Positions 1 through 6,293 of a stretch of DNA of 6,293 nucleotides are shown here, piece after piece (the stretch's first letter is position 1; each line of letters opens with the position of its first letter). Source of the DNA: a virus. Taxonomy: Duplodnaviria > Heunggongvirae > Uroviricota > Caudoviricetes. The translations under genes were made by a program, and so were the position numbers. The stretch spans positions 1 through 6,293 of IMG/VR virus record IMGVR_UViG_2671180921_000022; one strand, given 5' to 3'. Under the pieces are notes generated by a model. It saw only the letters and a list, made by a program, of their open reading frames with translations. It was not told where the DNA came from and did no database searches.

Positions 1-696
1 TCACTTCGGGTAAGGCTGAATCCTGGATAGCTTGGTGTTTAGGCGCTTTTTTGCACGCTTATTCAGGAATCTGATGTAGCGATACTGATTAAATTTGTGT
101 ACCACGGCCCGCTCCTTATTAGCCCGCAAATACTCGCCTCGTTGCCCTCCGCGCTTAATCGCGTTCATCGCTATCTCGTGATACCACTCGCCGTCCAGCT
201 CGTAGAACGTGCTTTCATGGCTACCAATAAAATCAAAATTCGACGCCTGATATACCACGCCAGCACGTCCGCAGCGTTCGTCTGCAAAAGACTGAACCCA
301 CTCAACTGACGGATACAGTAACCTGATAACTTTCAGCGCGTAGCTGATAGCCCGTGATTCAGAATTGCGGGGCATGTCGTCGTGTAGCCACATGCGGTTC
401 AGTTCCATGTAACCCCGGTTATCTGTTTCAAGCACGACACGACGCCCTGAGTTGGGATTAAGGGCATATCCCCACTGAAGAACGCCAACCAGATCACGTC
501 CGCTGAATACGCCCAGATGCAGGTAGGAGTTATTCACAAAACGGCGGGAATAATGCTTTGTCTGAATGATTGTGCGGGCCAGCCAGCAGGATATGGTTTC
601 AACGCGCAACTCCTTTGAACCATAGCCGACAATCCGGCCTTCATACTCAATAACGCAGGGTTTTGTCAGAATGCGTGATTTCTTCTCTTTTCCCAC
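1..696 (-). CDS. mom: Mom-like DNA modification protein (Mu Mom family); 231 aa if started at GTG 696..694, stop TGA at 3..1
   Basis: Long minus-strand ORF directly downstream of, and overlapping by 50 nt, a clear com homologue. The track ORF (1..738) opens with TTG; the first in-frame ATG is at 726 with no Shine-Dalgarno. GTG at 696..694 has GGAG 7 nt upstream and gives 231 aa, which is the length I recall for Mu Mom. Protein identity beyond synteny and size is from memory. Confidence 0.75.
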
Positions 697-832
697 AATA
701 CAGCTCCGTGGGATGCTCTTTGGCATTCGATATGACAATGTAACGTTTACAGCGAGGGCATTTAATTTCTATATGCTTAAAACCTCCTTTAAACAGTAAC
801 TTATTGCAGTTCTTACAGCGAACAGAGTCCAT
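647..832 (-). CDS. com: Com zinc-finger translational activator of mom (61 aa)
   Basis: ATG at 832..830 preceded by AGGGAG. Product [61 protein letters not shown] has CxxC-x15-CxxC and is near-identical in pattern to remembered Mu Com (..[22 protein letters not shown]..). The track ORF start at 865 is a GTG with no RBS and is less likely. Confidence 0.85.
691..713 (-). promoter_or_regulatory. Translation-inhibition hairpin sequestering the mom start codon and Shine-Dalgarno
   Basis: Minus-strand RNA 713..691 is UCCCAC-GGAGCUGUAUU-GUGGGA: a 6-bp stem (713-708 pairs with 696-691) and an 11-nt loop. GGAG is in the loop and the GUG start forms the 5' end of the 3' arm. This matches the Com-relieved occlusion mechanism known for Mu mom. 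Confidence 0.5.
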
Positions 833-905
833 GATTCTCCCTGTGTAATAACCAGATACGACCACCCGGAGGGCTGGGGATATTTAACCACACATGATGT
901 AAAAC

Positions 906-933
906 GACGATCGATATGATGGTATCGATCGTC
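906..933. promoter_or_regulatory. Perfect 11-bp inverted repeat with 6-bp spacer carrying two Dam (GATC) sites; candidate methylation-sensitive operator for the com-mom promoter
   Basis: GACGATCGATA (906-916), spacer tgatgg, TATCGATCGTC (923-933); the arms are exact reverse complements. GATC at 909-912 and 927-930. The element lies 74-101 bp upstream of the com ATG in the only sizeable non-coding gap of the window (833-973). Confidence 0.5.
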
Positions 934-973
934 ATAATCTATACAAAACGCTTAATTATTAACCTTTTTTGAG

Positions 974-1444
974 TCAGCTTTCTGCGGCACTCTGAGAAAG
1001 AGGCTCTGCTATCAGGGACAGCAGTCTCTCTGTCTGTTTTCTGTTTTCGAGGGTAATTGCGCAATCCCGTTTCACCTCCTCTGCATATAATCTGACACTT
1101 TCCGCACTTTTTTGTATCTGCATTGCAATCTCTTCGAACTTTTTAAGAGATTCAGGGCGCAAATCTGCATCTGTCACCGACAAAAAATCGTTAAGCGAAC
1201 CGTCCTGTGAATCTTCATAAACGCGAATGATGCCGATTTCTGAAAGGCGCTGTGCGCTCTGTGTCAGGCGAACACTGTACACGCCCGGCAGAACGGGGAA
1301 GTCGTACTCCCCGCTCTGTGTAGTGACGTGGCTGAAAACACCTTTCAGAATCCCTGCACGGTTGTGCAGGGAGGTCAGCGTGATGGTTGTGCCGCCCAGC
1401 GGTTCTCCTGTGGGCGTTTTAATCACACCTTTAAGCTGCGGCAT
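974..1444 (-). CDS. Orphan side-tail-fibre N-terminal domain protein (lambda Stf N-terminal domain-like, about 156 aa), lacking shaft and receptor-binding parts
   Basis: The product aligns by eye to the remembered lambda Stf N-terminus: LKGVIKTPTGEP vs ISGVLKDGTGKP, GVYSVRL vs GQYSVIL, IRVYEDSQDGSLNDFL vs ITVYEDSQPGTLNDFL, DLRPESLKKFEE vs DARPEVLRRLE. The ATG at 1444 has GGAG 7 nt upstream and aligns with the lambda Stf start; track ATGs at 1486 and 1471 are alternatives. The ORF overlaps the tfa stop by 14 nt. Confidence 0.7.
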   Translation of the reverse strand: MPQLKGVIKTPTGEPLGGTTITLTSLHNRAGILKGVFSHVTTQSGEYDFPVLPGVYSVRLTQSAQRLSEIGIIRVYEDSQDGSLNDFLSVTDADLRPESLKKFEEIAMQIQKSAESVRLYAEEVKRDCAITLENRKQTERLLSLIAEPLSQSAAES

Positions 1445-1961
1445 CGGGATGCTCCGGCCAGCTGATGGCATTAAGGGAGGCTTCATCAGTAACGGCGCTT
1501 AAATCCAGCGCTTTTACCGCTTTGATATACGCCATCCACTGCGCAAGACGAGCTTTGTCGTCATCACTGATGACGCCCAGCTCCAGCTCGGCTTTCCAGT
1601 CGGAGGTGATGTCCTTTGCTTCAGTCAGCAGATGCTGGCGTTGTTTTTCTGCCAGTTGCGAATAATCAACAGGAACCGGCAGCACTTCGCCGTCTTTGTA
1701 ATACCAACTGGCTTCAATGCCAAAGCCTTCCGGCAGTTCATCAACTTCCACAATGGTGAAGCCTGCCGGATAAAGACGGGACACGTCTTCTGCCATTGAA
1801 TAAATCACGCCGCTTTCAGGGTGAATGCACAATTTGTATCTCTTCGTGAATTTGTCCATGGATTCATAAAAATCCTGTCCGTCTTCACTGCGGAAATACT
1901 GAATGCCTTCACCATAAGGCATATCTTCAGGGTAGTAACGCGTAACATTTCTGAGTTCCAT
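1431..1961 (-). CDS. Tail fibre assembly chaperone (Tfa; Mu U / P2 gpG family), about 176 aa
   Basis: Product has the characteristic Tfa C-terminal region (..LGVISDDDKARLAQWMAYIKAV..SWPEHP). ATG at 1961 is preceded by AAGGAG (minus-strand TTAAGGAGAAAATAATG). It lies immediately downstream of the fibre gene. The track start at 1997 overlaps the fibre ORF and has no RBS. Confidence 0.85.
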   Translation of the reverse strand: MELRNVTRYYPEDMPYGEGIQYFRSEDGQDFYESMDKFTKRYKLCIHPESGVIYSMAEDVSRLYPAGFTIVEVDELPEGFGIEASWYYKDGEVLPVPVDYSQLAEKQRQHLLTEAKDITSDWKAELELGVISDDDKARLAQWMAYIKAVKALDLSAVTDEASLNAISWPEHPDAAA

Positions 1962-1975
1962 TATTTTCTCCTTAA

Positions 1976-2785
1976 TTAACCTGATACGGTGCGCCATGAA
2001 CCATTGATATAAATCTGCGCGGATTTGTAATACACACCACCGATGTTATCCGCCGAACTTCTTCCCGTATCCTGGACATAAATGCCTGATAACTGACAGC
2101 CTGAAGGCGCGCGAAACGTCCAGGTGATTTCGTTACCGCCCGGGTTGTAAAACACCTCATTGGTGTACTGAAAATCACGCACAGCGCCGGAATCGGTGGT
2201 GCTGATGGTGATATCACTGGTGCCATCAAACAGCACATTGTTAATCCTGCGTGCATTCTGAAGGCGGGTTGCCGTTCCGGCGTTGCCGCTGATGTTGCTG
2301 ATGGTGATATCCGAAGACAGGGCCAAACCGTTGACCCTGCGGGTATTCGGTACAGCACTATTGGCTTTATTTACCGTGTCACCTAATGAAAGTGCGTTGA
2401 TAATTTCACTGGCCGTGGTTTTTCCAAGAATACCGCGCACAAAAGCACTGAGCGGCGTTAACGCCATTGTGTCTTCGCTGGTAAAATACGGGAACGTGTT
2501 ATTCTCACCGGTTAATCCGGCAATGGCACCGGCTGAACCACTGTTCATAATAAACAGCTTTTTCAGGGCTGCCATTATCTGACCGGTATCTGCTTTATCC
2601 GGCGTTATTCCGGCTTCTTCGAGAATTTTCAGCAATTCAGACTGAATGATATTAAACCAGTCCGGCCCCGGATAGGTGGGCGGAATACCGTTCCCGCCTT
2701 CGGTGAAATAAAGCGTTGTCTGGCTTGATACTGGCGCAACAGGCGGCATCACCGGCACGCCGGTATTATTATCAACATGATACAT
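1976..2785 (-). CDS. Short tail fibre protein (269 aa): tail-collar-like N-terminus, P2 gpH-like C-terminus
   Basis: ATG at 2785. N-terminal ..YPGPDWFNIIQSELL.. resembles the conserved baseplate-attachment region of Mu S / P2 H fibres. The central ..FPYFTSEDTMALTPLSAFVRGILGK.. and the terminal ..YINGSWRTVSG resemble remembered P2 gpH (..FPYFTGNDVASLATLTKVGRDILAK.., ..YINGTWYNVAQV). Stop TAA at 1978..1976, followed by the tfa RBS. Confidence 0.8.
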   Translation of the reverse strand: MYHVDNNTGVPVMPPVAPVSSQTTLYFTEGGNGIPPTYPGPDWFNIIQSELLKILEEAGITPDKADTGQIMAALKKLFIMNSGSAGAIAGLTGENNTFPYFTSEDTMALTPLSAFVRGILGKTTASEIINALSLGDTVNKANSAVPNTRRVNGLALSSDITISNISGNAGTATRLQNARRINNVLFDGTSDITISTTDSGAVRDFQYTNEVFYNPGGNEITWTFRAPSGCQLSGIYVQDTGRSSADNIGGVYYKSAQIYINGSWRTVSG

Positions 2786-2827
2786 ATCTGATTATTTCTC
2801 CTGATATTGTGTATACAGAGATATTTA

Positions 2828-3871
2828 TTATTCAGTGGCGCTCCGTGCCTGATTAAGCAACTCCGCTGAGAAGGTCAGCTCCCCCCTTGCGAAAGGCGTT
2901 TCTCCGCCCGGTTCCGCCATAAAACTCTGTGAGACTGTGGTCCAGCTGTTTGTGTCGTATTGTGCGCCATCCTCTGTAATCATTGCGCCTTCATGGCTTC
3001 CGTTTTTCACTTTCCAGGCCAGACAGTTATTGGGTGCGTCTGCGCTGCGGTAAGTAACAGAAGCCATTACAGCAATGACATTGTTGTTACTGTTGTCCAC
3101 CGCACCAAACGTAACCTGTGCAGCCTCCGTGGAGGGTGAGAGCATCAGGTATCCGGCATCACTGTCAGATGTGTTCAGCCCCGTCACAATATCTTTGTCC
3201 AGCGAGTTTCTGGCACTCCCGCCGGAGAACGCCGTTACCGGACTGTAGCCAACCTCAACACTCCCCAGCAGTGATGGTGAGGCATCATAGTTATCACCAT
3301 ACGGCAGCGTCGCCAGGTACATATCACCCAGCATCACAGTACCGGATACACCTGACGTGAAAATACGTCCGGTATCGCCAATCCCCACCGTAACCTGGTC
3401 CACGTCATTAAAGTAAACGCGTCCGACTAACGAGCGGTTACAGTACAGGCTGGCTGACGCCCGATTACTTTCACTTAGCGCCACAAAAATCTCAAAATAG
3501 TAACTGGCTGCCTCATCAGGATACGGTGTGGTGAATGATTTACCGCCGACACGGATATACGAAGATGAATTTTTCCCCCCTTCACTTAATGTCAGACGAA
3601 AACCCATCTGTACGGCAGAGCCGCTTAAATCAGGAAGCGGAATATAAAGATAAAGAGGTCCCTGCGGCTGAAAAATCAGCCCTGTTCTTTCTGTTGTATT
3701 AACAACCTGTGTGCCACGACGAACGGATACGACAGAAGAGTTGTACATGTCACTGATAAGTGTGACGCCGTTTTCGTTCAGTGCGGAAAGAATGTTTGCC
3801 GGAGAGGGGGTCTCACACAATTCCTCATCCGCCGGAATTTGTCGGAAGCTTTCGAGTTTTATGATATTCAA
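2828..3871 (-). CDS. Hypothetical protein in the tail-fibre locus (347 aa from TTG 3871; 362 aa from TTG 3916); possible accessory receptor-binding or fibre-associated protein
   Basis: Uninterrupted minus-strand ORF with no in-frame ATG near its 5' end. TTG at 3871 is preceded by AAGGAG at 7-nt spacing, whereas TTG at 3916 overlaps the gp48-like gene and has no RBS. Ends in tandem stops TAA TAA (2830..2825). Ser/Gly/Thr/Asn/Tyr-rich like phage fibre or receptor-binding domains, but I recognise no specific family. Confidence 0.6.
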   Translation of the reverse strand: MNIIKLESFRQIPADEELCETPSPANILSALNENGVTLISDMYNSSVVSVRRGTQVVNTTERTGLIFQPQGPLYLYIPLPDLSGSAVQMGFRLTLSEGGKNSSSYIRVGGKSFTTPYPDEAASYYFEIFVALSESNRASASLYCNRSLVGRVYFNDVDQVTVGIGDTGRIFTSGVSGTVMLGDMYLATLPYGDNYDASPSLLGSVEVGYSPVTAFSGGSARNSLDKDIVTGLNTSDSDAGYLMLSPSTEAAQVTFGAVDNSNNNVIAVMASVTYRSADAPNNCLAWKVKNGSHEGAMITEDGAQYDTNSWTTVSQSFMAEPGGETPFARGELTFSAELLNQARSATE

Positions 3872-3893
3872 AGTTACTCTCCTTTTATTTTTG

Positions 3894-4817
3894 CTATTCG
3901 GATATGACCACAGCAAAATGCAGTCCCGGATGATTAATCATTAACGGTTCACTGGTTCTGTTGACTGTCTGTAATTGCATACTGTTAACCGGTACGGGGG
4001 AGCCTGTTCTGTATCCCACCTGCATCTGCGCACTGGTAATTGTCATGGGTTCAGTTGTTGGTTGACCTGAATGCAATTGTGCCCTGCTGAGCATCAGCGG
4101 TTCACCTGCCAGTGCCGGAACAACCGCAAAATGCATTCCAGCACAGTTAATCGCTACTGGATCCGCAGCTTTGTATCCGGCCTGAACCCAGGTACGGTTA
4201 ATGGACAGTGGTGGACCGGAAAGAGATTCATCATCACCATCTGTGTAAAAAAACTCATACCCTGTTCCGCCCATGCGGTAATTTTTCAGGAGACATTCCA
4301 GTTCGCGGGTCCGTTCGCTGATTAATGGCGTCATGACGTCATCAATACAGGTAAACCGACCGGCATCGTTGTCCGGGACTTCCACTTTCAGCAGCCAGCG
4401 ATACCGCGCCGGATGCAGCGGATACATGCAGTCGCGCAGGCAGTGGTGCGGCAGAACGGCCGTCACCTTTATGGTGAAGCCCAGCGCCGCAGCAGCAGCT
4501 TCAATCTGCCAGGTTGCCAGCCCGCCCTTGCGGCGGTATTTCTCAACCACAGCACGGCGACGGGCTTCCGTTGTGGTGGCGGCAATTCCGCATTCCGGCA
4601 GCGCCAGATACTGCTCCCACTCCGGCAGCAACTGGAGCGTGGTTTCCGGGCGCATCTCCACATGCAGACGCGAGGCGTCGTATTCAACGCGGGTTAAACG
4701 CTCTGCAAGCGCCCTTAAAAAACGGTTTAAATCTGCATCGTTATCACGCGGCCATGCCTTACCCCGTGGCATGACCTGTTGCAGTGCGGTCAGCCATTCC
4801 GTCACGCTGTGAGCCAT
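3894..4817 (-). CDS. Mu gp48 / P2 gpI-like baseplate-tail protein (DUF2313/YmfQ-like N-terminal about 190 aa) with an extra C-terminal repeat region of about 115 aa
   Basis: ATG at 4817. N-terminus MAHSVTEWLTALQQVMPRGKAWPRD... is typical of gpI/gp48-family proteins. Position is right after the baseplate-J-like gene, with a 16-nt overlap. The C-terminal region carries about five degenerate 15-aa repeats. Confidence 0.8.
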   Translation of the reverse strand: MAHSVTEWLTALQQVMPRGKAWPRDNDADLNRFLRALAERLTRVEYDASRLHVEMRPETTLQLLPEWEQYLALPECGIAATTTEARRRAVVEKYRRKGGLATWQIEAAAAALGFTIKVTAVLPHHCLRDCMYPLHPARYRWLLKVEVPDNDAGRFTCIDDVMTPLISERTRELECLLKNYRMGGTGYEFFYTDGDDESLSGPPLSINRTWVQAGYKAADPVAINCAGMHFAVVPALAGEPLMLSRAQLHSGQPTTEPMTITSAQMQVGYRTGSPVPVNSMQLQTVNRTSEPLMINHPGLHFAVVISE

Positions 4818-5878
4818 GTCACCACCCCGATGGTGATAAGCTCATCCACATCACTGGTGGTGTCTTCCCCGATGTTGAGGAAGTAATCCGTGATACCGGA
4901 CGTCATACCGATGGCCGTGCGCAGCGAGGACACCGGCAGCATCTGACCGGGGGCCAGCGTTTTCTGTAATGCGGTCAGGTTTGCCCGGACGGCGTTCCTG
5001 TTCGCCTGGCTGTCCGGTGTCAGACGGATGGACAGGTCGACCTTCTTCAGCCTGACCTGTACCGGCCAGACCTCGATGCCGCCCGGTTTGCCCACCATCA
5101 CCCCGGTGGCCGGGTGTTTGTGGCAGAACAGATACTGCTCCATTGTCTTCAGGTCGTCCCGTGTGGGGATAATGTCTTCACGGTCATCATAAAGCCATGC
5201 CAGCCCGACCGTGCCGGGGCCGTGCCACGCATCCCACGCCCACGCGCGGCTGACACCCGGCACTTCACGCGCCCAGATGACGTAATCATGCAGTGCACCG
5301 CCCACCGGGGGATTGCGGCGCACATACAGCAGACGGTCCAGCAGCTCTGCGATGGATTCGATGTCTGCGCCACCGGTGATGCCACTTTCAGTCACCGCGC
5401 CTGTGCTGCCCGTTCCGGGTAGCGGGGATAACAGAGTGAGCACGGCACCGGCAGCAAGATTGCCCGCCACACCGGCTTCTTCAGCCTGCACGATGACAGT
5501 GACCTCGCCGTCCTGTACCTCGCCGGATGTGAGTACCTGATACACCTGATTCGTGTCGGACTGCATCCGGGTTTCTGCCGGGATGGGGGACTGACTGGTG
5601 AAGGTCACCGGTCCGCTGGCAAAGGTGGCCTGCTTGCGGATAATCCCTTCATACGTTGCTGTTTTGATAATGGTTTCATCATCAGACGCGGTGGACGGAA
5701 TAATCTGGTCTTTAATCCAGCTCTGATGGTCGTATAAATCCCGGACCTGACTGCTGAATGACACGTTCAGCGCCTGCTCAACACTGACAGGCGGCAGCTT
5801 TTGCAGGCCGAGTTCATACGCAATATCTTTTTCGCCGTCGGCAATCAGTTTGCCCAGCGTGGGGATTTCATACGGCAT
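4802..5878 (-). CDS. Baseplate J-like protein (Mu gp47 / P2 gpJ family), 358 aa
   Basis: Long ORF between gp46-like and gpI-like genes; the size matches Mu gp47. ATG at 5878 has GGGAGG about 9 nt upstream and overlaps the gp46-like stop (TGA 5870..5868). The track start at 5911 is a TTG deeper into the upstream gene. Confidence 0.8.
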   Translation of the reverse strand: MPYEIPTLGKLIADGEKDIAYELGLQKLPPVSVEQALNVSFSSQVRDLYDHQSWIKDQIIPSTASDDETIIKTATYEGIIRKQATFASGPVTFTSQSPIPAETRMQSDTNQVYQVLTSGEVQDGEVTVIVQAEEAGVAGNLAAGAVLTLLSPLPGTGSTGAVTESGITGGADIESIAELLDRLLYVRRNPPVGGALHDYVIWAREVPGVSRAWAWDAWHGPGTVGLAWLYDDREDIIPTRDDLKTMEQYLFCHKHPATGVMVGKPGGIEVWPVQVRLKKVDLSIRLTPDSQANRNAVRANLTALQKTLAPGQMLPVSSLRTAIGMTSGITDYFLNIGEDTTSDVDELITIGVVTWLTA

Positions 5879-6293
5879 TAATGGTGGCCTCCCATCGGCG
5901 GGTGATTTCAATTGTGAGCGTGGTTTTGTCCGGGCGGGTTAACACCACCTGAAAGGCAATACGGTCAGGGACGATGATGCTGGCCGTGACGGTGGCGTTA
6001 CGGGCGTAACCGGCCCGCAGCAGCGGTTGCATGGACAGCCGCGCGTAATCTTCCACACGCAGGCGGACATCTTCCGTCAGCTTTTCACGCTCAAGCAGCC
6101 ACAGGCGGGAACCCCACGAAAAATCACTGTACGTGTCGCCCGGCCAGCCGCGCGGGTCGCCGGAACCATCAGGGATGACATCATCGTCATCAGCACGGGC
6201 ATCGGTGAAAAGGCAGATAAGAACCTGAGTGACCAGCCCCTCATCCAGCGAGAGGCCGTTATGGGTGACGGTGATGTCACCCCGTGAGAGCAT
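5868..6293 (-). CDS. Mu gp46-like baseplate protein (GP46 family), 141 aa; the start codon is the last triplet of the window, so the true 5' end cannot be confirmed
   Basis: Product contains ..DDDDVIPDGSGDPRGWPGDTYSD..GSRLWLLEREK.., matching the motif pattern I recall for the phage GP46 family (acidic stretch, GWWGD, GSRLWLL.REK). ATG at 6293..6291 gives a length typical for the family, but no upstream context is visible. Confidence 0.7.
   Translation of the reverse strand: MLSRGDITVTHNGLSLDEGLVTQVLICLFTDARADDDDVIPDGSGDPRGWPGDTYSDFSWGSRLWLLEREKLTEDVRLRVEDYARLSMQPLLRAGYARNATVTASIIVPDRIAFQVVLTRPDKTTLTIEITRRWEATINAV

Follow-up and report, generated by a model that had tools for sequence, protein, structure and literature searches.

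Between the tail-fibre chaperone gene tfa and the com-mom region of a Mu-like prophage lies an open reading frame of 156 codons, which raises the question of whether it is a working gene or what remains of a larger one. The window analysed here, meaning the whole stretch of 6,293 nucleotides (positions 1 to 6,293 of IMG/VR record IMGVR_UViG_2671180921_000022), corresponds to the right end of a Mu-like prophage of E. coli and carries all of its genes on the minus strand (Table 1). Its com-mom region is 88-89% identical to those of Mu, D108 and SfMu, with the similarity confined to positions 1-822, and no match to any cultured phage was found for the window beyond position 822. The host was assigned to E. 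coli because the 347-aa protein encoded in the window is 100% identical to a protein (P0032) from an E. coli assembly. The open reading frame, hereafter the stub, starts at ATG 1444-1442 and ends at TGA 976-974 with its frame intact. It overlaps tfa by 14 nt, such that its ATG lies within the last tfa codons and the tfa stop (TAA) falls at 1433-1431. The intact start, ribosome-binding site (GGAG, 1455-1452) and coupling to tfa are therefore as the original prediction, made from the letters alone, had described them. A longer start at the in-frame ATG 1486 (170 aa) is disfavored, as all homologues begin with MPQLKG.

Table 1. Features of the window, with the evidence on which each assignment is based
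Feature	Position	Strand	Remarks
com (647-865) and mom (1-738)	1..865	-	PF10122 and PF25680; right end of Mu-like prophage
Intergenic region upstream of com	866..973	-	108 nt; sequence, and the window aligned with L001 and L008
Segment unique to the stub allele	965..1129	-	Not alignable to L001; must hold the deletion junction (blastn)
Stub ORF (StfN; probable 5′ remnant of a second Stf-type fibre gene)	974..1444	-	156 aa; ORF list, PF08400
Predicted single long helix	980..1156	-	Residues 97-155, start of proximal coiled-coil shaft; AF2
Collar (anchor) domain	1172..1444	-	Residues 1-~91, six-stranded beta-sandwich; 9e7m match, Foldseek, AF2
tfa, primary-fibre chaperone	1431..1961	-	176 aa from ATG 1961; PF02413 E=1e-20, phrog_136 E=9e-56
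Shine-Dalgarno GGAG	1452..1455	-	7 nt upstream of the stub ATG, within the tfa coding sequence
Primary tail fibre (Mu S / P2 H-like)	1976..2785	-	269 aa; phrog_1833 E=6e-103
Putative lectin-like accessory protein	2828..3871	-	347 aa from ATG; open to 3916 (362 aa); phrog_8291 E=1e-162
gp48 C-terminal repeat extension	3894..4242	-	~110 aa; fused to baseplate wedge protein gp48 (gene 3894-4817)
Baseplate J/gp47	4802-5911	-	
gp46	5868-6293	-	

The stub product is a member of the lambda-Stf-type N-terminal collar-domain family, far beyond chance. The Pfam family PF08400 (phage_tail_N) matches it at E=9e-25 over profile positions 5-130 of 134, with 87.7 bits against a cut-off of 26.6. PHROG tail-fibre families match down to E=6.6e-43, always over the first ~120-130 positions of profiles that are 300-1200 positions long. 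Residues 4-91 of Ur-lambda gpStf (9e7m) are the closest solved structure by sequence (phmmer against the PDB, E=7e-11), and identity to lambda gpStfN is 37% over 90 aligned columns. The AF2 model (mean pLDDT 77) has all six of its strands within residues 3-75, followed by a short helix (84-87) and a long one (97-155), and Foldseek superposes it on 9e7m_Ta with a target-normalised TM of 0.84 and an rmsd of 1.9 Å. The next Foldseek matches are the neck collar spike of myophage XM1, Bxb1 tail-tip proteins and the neck fibre of cyanophage A-1(L). In lambda, twelve copies of gpStfN (residues 1-94) build a collar around the tail, from which flexible linkers of ~10 residues lead to trimeric coiled coils (PMC12617516). 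Because the model and sequence of the stub match this layout, we infer that the product comprises a collar domain and a linker, with ~55 residues that begin a shaft. Sequence searches thus find similarity to Stf N-terminal domains well above the family cut-off. The predicted composition, an Stf N-terminal domain followed by a short coiled-coil segment alone, is supported by the PF08400 and 9e7m matches and by the helix at 97-155.

Compared with a complete Stf-type fibre, the long coiled-coil shaft and the C-terminal tip are missing, as the frame ends at residue 156. No cognate chaperone, whether Tfa, DUF4376 or intramolecular, is present at or after the stub 3′ end, and the interval from the stub stop (974) to com (865) is taken up by the 108-nt intergenic region and contains no gene for a shaft, tip or chaperone, in agreement with the original prediction on this point. 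A scan for promoters and terminators found no coding-strand terminator from tfa to com and nothing further that was informative. The intergenic region does hold a GATC-rich palindrome, cgatcgatatgatggtatcgatcg, at ~905-935, which is kept in two loci with full-length fibre genes (L001 and L008); it is probably the counterpart of the Dam/OxyR control region known for Mu mom.

What usually occupies the space between tfa and com can be read from related prophages. When window positions 800-3000 were searched by megablast against 5426 complete E. coli genomes, the stub arrangement appeared at ~92% identity in 22 genomes, and about 90 more gave partial matches, of which nine loci were read (L001, L008, L015, L016, L017, L021, L022, L023 and L024). 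All nine of these sister prophages carry a full-length, MPQLKG-headed Stf-type fibre of 468-1037 aa in the tfa-to-com space, followed in six by a DUF4376 gene and then by com-mom. DUF4376 is a marker of a tail-fibre chaperone family (PMC7289586). One example is the fibre of STEC383 (WP_414840370.1, 639 aa, then a DUF4376 gene). These fibres share with the stub the slot, the 14-nt overlap with tfa (checked in L001), the com-mom boundary and 83-88% identity over the first ~100 residues. They differ from it in having a long coiled coil, a variable tip and mostly a DUF4376 gene, and their loci differ from the window in having a short, 194-aa gp48 without the lectin-like gene. The original prediction held that a fibre gene does not normally sit downstream of tfa, which is wrong for this clade. 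Its proposal that relatives be searched for a full-length stf at the same locus was borne out nine times over, which supports the reading of the stub as the scar of a second fibre gene. In one of these prophages (L023 1762-2975, E. coli SA53-3), an IS3-family element lies between the full-length Stf gene and com, with its insertion site at the module boundary where the stub allele ends.

The same position also holds shorter StfN proteins. L009 (7001-8723) encodes a 202-aa StfN adaptor (StfN202, P0024) followed by a 370-aa gene, and L011 (7001-9320), like L012 and L013, encodes a 217-aa StfN adaptor (P0025) followed by a 100-aa gene and a 454-aa gene of the GDSL/SGNH family, which together may form an esterase-type accessory unit. 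P0024 ends in three PLMIN-type repeats and P0025 in a globular end of ~50 aa, both docking modules. Because full-length fibres and adaptor arrangements alike occupy it, the tfa-com space can be regarded as a slot for a second, StfN-anchored receptor-binding unit. We found no described Mu-like phage with an StfN second fibre in the literature and no cultured phage with a close relative, the best identity in 50,697 phage records being 34%. Scanning GTDB with the N-domain gave no match, which probably reflects the limit of the search patterns and the use of one genome per species.

Alignment to full-length Stf proteins, which the original prediction had proposed for finding the truncation point, places it late in the stub. 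By blastp the stub follows the full-length proteins colinearly over their first ~146 residues, with 70-88% identity up to residue ~116, and the helix residues ~97-116 still match Stf alleles in the alignment. Over residues ~120-138 there is a weak likeness to one allele class only (YAEEVKRDCAITLENRKQT vs FAEKARQDATVTAENRKAT); the stub tail and P0063 share 9 of 19 residues (blastp, E=0.018). For the last ~17-25 residues, HMMER found no relatives among 1.8e9 representatives. At the DNA level (blastn), the full-length locus L001 matches window positions 1130-2786 and 1-964 and leaves positions 965-1129 unaligned. The left boundary of the com-mom module, at ~950-964, is common to the stub and to the full-length loci compared (L001 and L008). 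Since the alignment to L001 breaks there and the boundary is common, the deletion would span from about codon 140 of the fibre gene to the left boundary of com-mom. It likewise follows from the common boundary that com-mom was not acquired at the truncation, which contradicts the original suggestion that the fibre gene was cut when the com-mom cassette arrived.

The junction was located to window positions ~977-1027, and it is not fixed to the base because no full-length parent with the stub tail sequence was found. A 'distant' blastn search of the 5426 E. coli genomes returned no full-length parent, and neither did tblastn against phages, a pattern scan of GTDB representatives or HMMER against 1.8e9 representatives. 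Exact 20-25-mers of the stub tail in IMG/VR and JGI metagenomes retrieved more stub copies and three chance matches, and no parent. The stretch that would mark an undeleted parent, if found within a long ORF, is SVRLYAEEVKRDCAITLENRKQTE. A kinship between 'LSLIAEP' in the stub and 'LSLIEKTPP' in P0024 was considered and rejected as too short (4 residues).

The stub allele appears to be young and to have a single origin. Segment 940-1140 is 99.5-100% identical in 23 complete E. coli genomes and occurs in no other context (blastn), and the stub tail is identical in IMG/VR and metagenome contigs. Between the window and the stub loci L003 and L004, 0-1 of 195 positions differ in the stub tail, 0-1 of 108 in the intergenic region and 2-4 of 127 in com, as against 50-59 of 517 in tfa, 20-23 of 276 in the N-domain and 41-42 of 738 in mom. 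Divergence in the flanks of the stub locus accordingly amounts to 7-8% in the N-domain, 10-11% in tfa and 5.6% in mom. When L014, L025 and L026 are compared along with L003 and L004, window positions 866-1168 stand out as an island of low diversity, in which ~300 nt contain 0-1 differences although the sequences on either side diverge by 5-11%; its left edge lies at the same base (1169) in three of the five independent loci (L003, L004 and L025). Because the island centers on sequence for which other alleles have no homologue, it would be accounted for by one deletion allele of recent date, moved by recombination in the flanking homology, and we interpret the island as the footprint of such an allele. 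An alternative reading is that the island marks a functional element at the nucleotide level, upstream of the mom promoter. Stub-bearing prophages adjoin yehQ, mhpR/lacI, a NUDIX gene and a GH127 gene, and these differing chromosomal neighbors indicate independent lysogenisations after the deletion. As stub phages thus went on to lysogenise new hosts, the second fibre is dispensable.

Measures of selection on the stub have to be read in light of this history. Every one of the 23 complete genomes has an unbroken ORF, as do the metagenome copies of good quality. The frameshifted versions (P0007-P0009 and L031) lie at homopolymer runs or in a contig of 0.8x coverage and may be sequencing errors, for which reason they were not counted as evidence of decay. 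Decay by frameshift was also considered for two complete genomes with 200-nt rather than 201-nt matches and was rejected, since the indel falls in a run of A residues beyond the stop and leaves the ORF untouched. Values of dN/dS for the N-domain range from 0.11 to 0.41 among stub copies, a departure from neutrality, and from 0.07 to 0.27 among full-length alleles. The stub tail shows zero synonymous changes and 0-1 substitutions against a dS of 0.16-0.21 in the N-domain, from which it follows that the N-domain variation was imported by recombination from full-length alleles and that dN/dS says nothing on selection on the stub itself. Intactness is equally without weight, because 0-1 substitutions in the unique part make it the expected outcome under neutrality. 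In the five RefSeq copies that were read, PGAP annotates the stub as a partial pseudogene, 'incomplete, missing C-terminus'.

A second difference between stub loci and their sisters lies upstream, in the baseplate. PF10076 covers residues 11-191 of the 307 residues of the window gp48, and the extension that follows consists of about six PLxIN-type repeats of ~17-20 residues (xPLxINxxxLQ), which match the C-terminal repeats of StfN202/P0024 at E=1.6e-7 in several registers. The 347-aa protein encoded next is 50% identical to the product of the 370-aa gene that follows StfN202 in L009 (E=1e-111). Its AF2 model has a pLDDT of 90 and gives weak Foldseek matches to legume lectins and to receptor-binding domains of botulinum toxin (E~1e-5, TM 0.2-0.4), which makes a lectin-like fold suggestive only. 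Because L009 and the window share both the repeats and the partner gene, one cassette, docking repeats plus lectin-like protein, seems to be used on two anchors, StfN or gp48, and by sequence it looks like a portable combination of dock and receptor-binding protein.

The gp48 extension accompanies the stub in every locus examined that retains the baseplate genes. All four remnant loci that retain gp48 (the window, L002, L005 and L014) have an extension of ~110-150 residues followed by a gene of 347-352 aa, and each of the 11 loci that carry a complete Stf or an adaptor has a plain gp48 of 180-194 aa without the 347-352-aa gene after it. One or two evolutionary events underlie this association, and its 16 loci do not count as independent cases. 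L003, whose contig ends inside the upstream gene, has the 352-aa gene. The association may reflect redundancy or steric exclusion. The ETEC6-type prophage family, which has a Mu-like baseplate, combines the extended gp48 and ORF349 with only a 3′ fragment of a DUF4376 gene after tfa and no StfN, and represents an independent loss of the Stf unit in an extended-gp48 background. The extended gp48 of E. coli ETEC6 (L018 7045-8030; YmfQ family) is labelled an incomplete pseudogene by PGAP, but its frame stays open through the repeats; a family model that stops at the core domain is the probable cause of the label.

Taken together, the stub is best explained, with a probability of roughly 0.78, as the 5′ end of a second fibre gene of the lambda Stf type that survived an ordinary recent deletion. 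That sister prophages hold a full-length Stf in the tfa-com slot is the reason for regarding the stub as what remains of the fibre gene that normally sits there. In the sequence of events that we propose, the slot would normally hold an accessory receptor-binding unit anchored to the virion by the StfN collar domain, either as one long fibre with or without a DUF4376 gene or as a StfN adaptor of ~200 aa with separate downstream genes. One deletion in the lineage of the window would have removed the stretch from about codon 140 of the fibre gene to the left edge of com-mom. What survives would be the collar domain with its linker and ~55 residues of the proximal helix, and the gene would have inherited its start codon, ribosome-binding site and 14-nt overlap with tfa unchanged. 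As these parental signals are kept, transcription and translation of the stub probably continue along with those of the late tail genes, and since the stub has no shaft, tip, docking module or chaperone, its product should be unable to bind a receptor. The phages carrying it stayed viable, as their many different chromosomal sites show, and in all remnant loci examined that retain the baseplate genes the docking-repeat extension of gp48 and the lectin-like protein would serve as a replacement accessory unit. Most likely, then, the stub is a dispensable vestige comparable to the truncated stf of laboratory lambda, in whose virions Stf was not detected by mass spectrometry (PMC10721106).

The comparison with lambda has limits on either side. 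Lambda Stf shares with the stub an N-terminal beta-sandwich, a short linker, a helix that starts a coiled coil and a nearby chaperone gene of the tfa type. It runs on to 774 aa with a shaft, a hinge and a gp37-like tip, whereas the stub stops after ~55 helical residues; lambda is also a siphovirus, while the stub phage is a Mu-like myovirus. In lambda PaPa, as in the stub phages, the N-terminal anchor is kept, the phage is fully viable and the accessory fibre is dispensable. There, however, a frameshift leaves both gene halves and tfa in place, whereas the deletion considered here took the distal part and any chaperone and left a much shorter fragment. Related anchor folds occur in the collar spike of Vibrio phage XM1 (7kjk) and the gp5 neck fibre of cyanophage A-1(L) (8keg), with Foldseek E values of 9e-7 and 3e-3; these show the anchor in use on contractile-tailed phages, as parts of complete fibres that are distant in sequence from the stub.

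The pseudogene annotation could also mean that the stub is silent, either untranslated or with a product degraded at once. Fibres of the Stf class are generally understood to trimerise from the C-terminus with the help of a chaperone, so that a fragment without this end may not fold into a stable trimer. The missing trimerisation end of the stub and the failure to detect Stf in lambda PaPa virions (PMC10721106) both fit such a fate. Yet the Shine-Dalgarno sequence and the tfa overlap are identical to those of expressed full-length genes, the coding strand shows nothing like a terminator from tfa to the stub, and the collar domain, modelled as an autonomous beta-sandwich, should fold alone. We therefore consider a silent stub unlikely, though it is the least improbable of the rivals. 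Less probable than this is a functional protein made of the collar only, in which a helix trimer or a collar ring on the tail or neck would aid the virion through stability, spacing of fibres or blocking of anchor sites. The intact start, ribosome-binding site and coupling to tfa would suit it, as would a frame that is open in every copy of good quality, a complete fold with a confident match to the domain that forms the lambda collar (PMC12617516) and the spread of the allele into backgrounds whose fibre genes differ by 17-25%. The open frame, however, carries no weight in an allele too young to have decayed (0-1 substitutions in ~300 nt), and neither of two protein sets (5.8e9 and 1.8e9 sequences) contains an older or diverged stand-alone homologue of stub length. 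That the last ~20 residues are without relatives is what a junction product would give, and the lambda virions with a truncated stf, again, contained no detectable Stf (PMC10721106).

A more specific version of this idea, to which we give slightly less credence still, is that the stub product is a working part, assembled as a collar without fibres on the tail or neck of the Mu-like phage and kept after the accessory cassette moved from StfN to gp48. If true, the same cassette would fit two virion anchors and the empty anchor would have a structural role of its own. Most improbable of all is that the stub is a genuine short StfN adaptor of the L009 or L011 type, with its receptor-binding protein encoded elsewhere in the cluster, for example by ORF347/362. 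Adaptors of 202 and 217 aa do exist in the same slot, and the window encodes a member of the family to which the partner of one of them belongs. Like the stub, P0024 (L009) and P0025 (L011-13) are small StfN proteins with a collar domain and a short helix. Both, however, end in a docking module and have partner genes downstream, and the stub has neither: blastp aligns it to P0024 over residues 1-125 only and to P0025 over residues 1-138 only, which leaves out the repeats and the globular end, and com follows directly where a partner gene would be. The docking repeats of the window sit instead on gp48, directly upstream of the partner gene, so ORF347 already has an anchor. As for the original alternative of a functional decoy or adaptor, the sequence comparisons neither support it nor speak against it, beyond showing that genuine adaptors differ in their docking module and partner genes.

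Read as a deletion remnant, the stub is of little importance in itself, being a truncated fibre gene of a kind already known, flagged in RefSeq as a partial pseudogene and preceded by the case of laboratory lambda. Its context is of modest practical interest, since this uncultured E. coli Mu-like clade has a StfN slot in place of the invertible G segment of Mu. The G segment and Gin occupy the equivalent genome position, from primary fibre and chaperone to com-mom, and also serve host-range variation. Mu does so with an invertase and inverted alternative S′/U′ genes, whereas the clade of the window has neither and adds a second, co-expressed unit instead of alternating fibres; no site-specific invertase and no inverted alternative fibre or chaperone ORFs were found between tfa and com in the window. 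The contents of the slot are very variable and include long fibres, an adaptor with a lectin-like protein and an adaptor with a GDSL-family protein. Natural fusion points such as these, where repeats and a lectin-like protein of ~350 aa are joined to StfN or gp48, are sought by phage and tailocin engineers for retargeting host range.

Two further observations concern the surroundings of the stub. The primary fibre, whose homologues in relatives are annotated 'phage tail protein', is 83% identical in gene sequence between the window and L002, and the lectin-like gene is 75% identical, while the flanking genes are 94-100% identical, such that window positions 1976-3916 form a sharp block of hypervariability in host-range genes. 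In two different assemblies, a second, inverted copy of tfa-stub-com-mom abuts the left end (repressor, ner and transposase) of the same prophage (L004 5484-7456 and L005 5484-7456, both from CP028768.1, and L006 4219-6191), possibly as a result of a transposition-mediated rearrangement.
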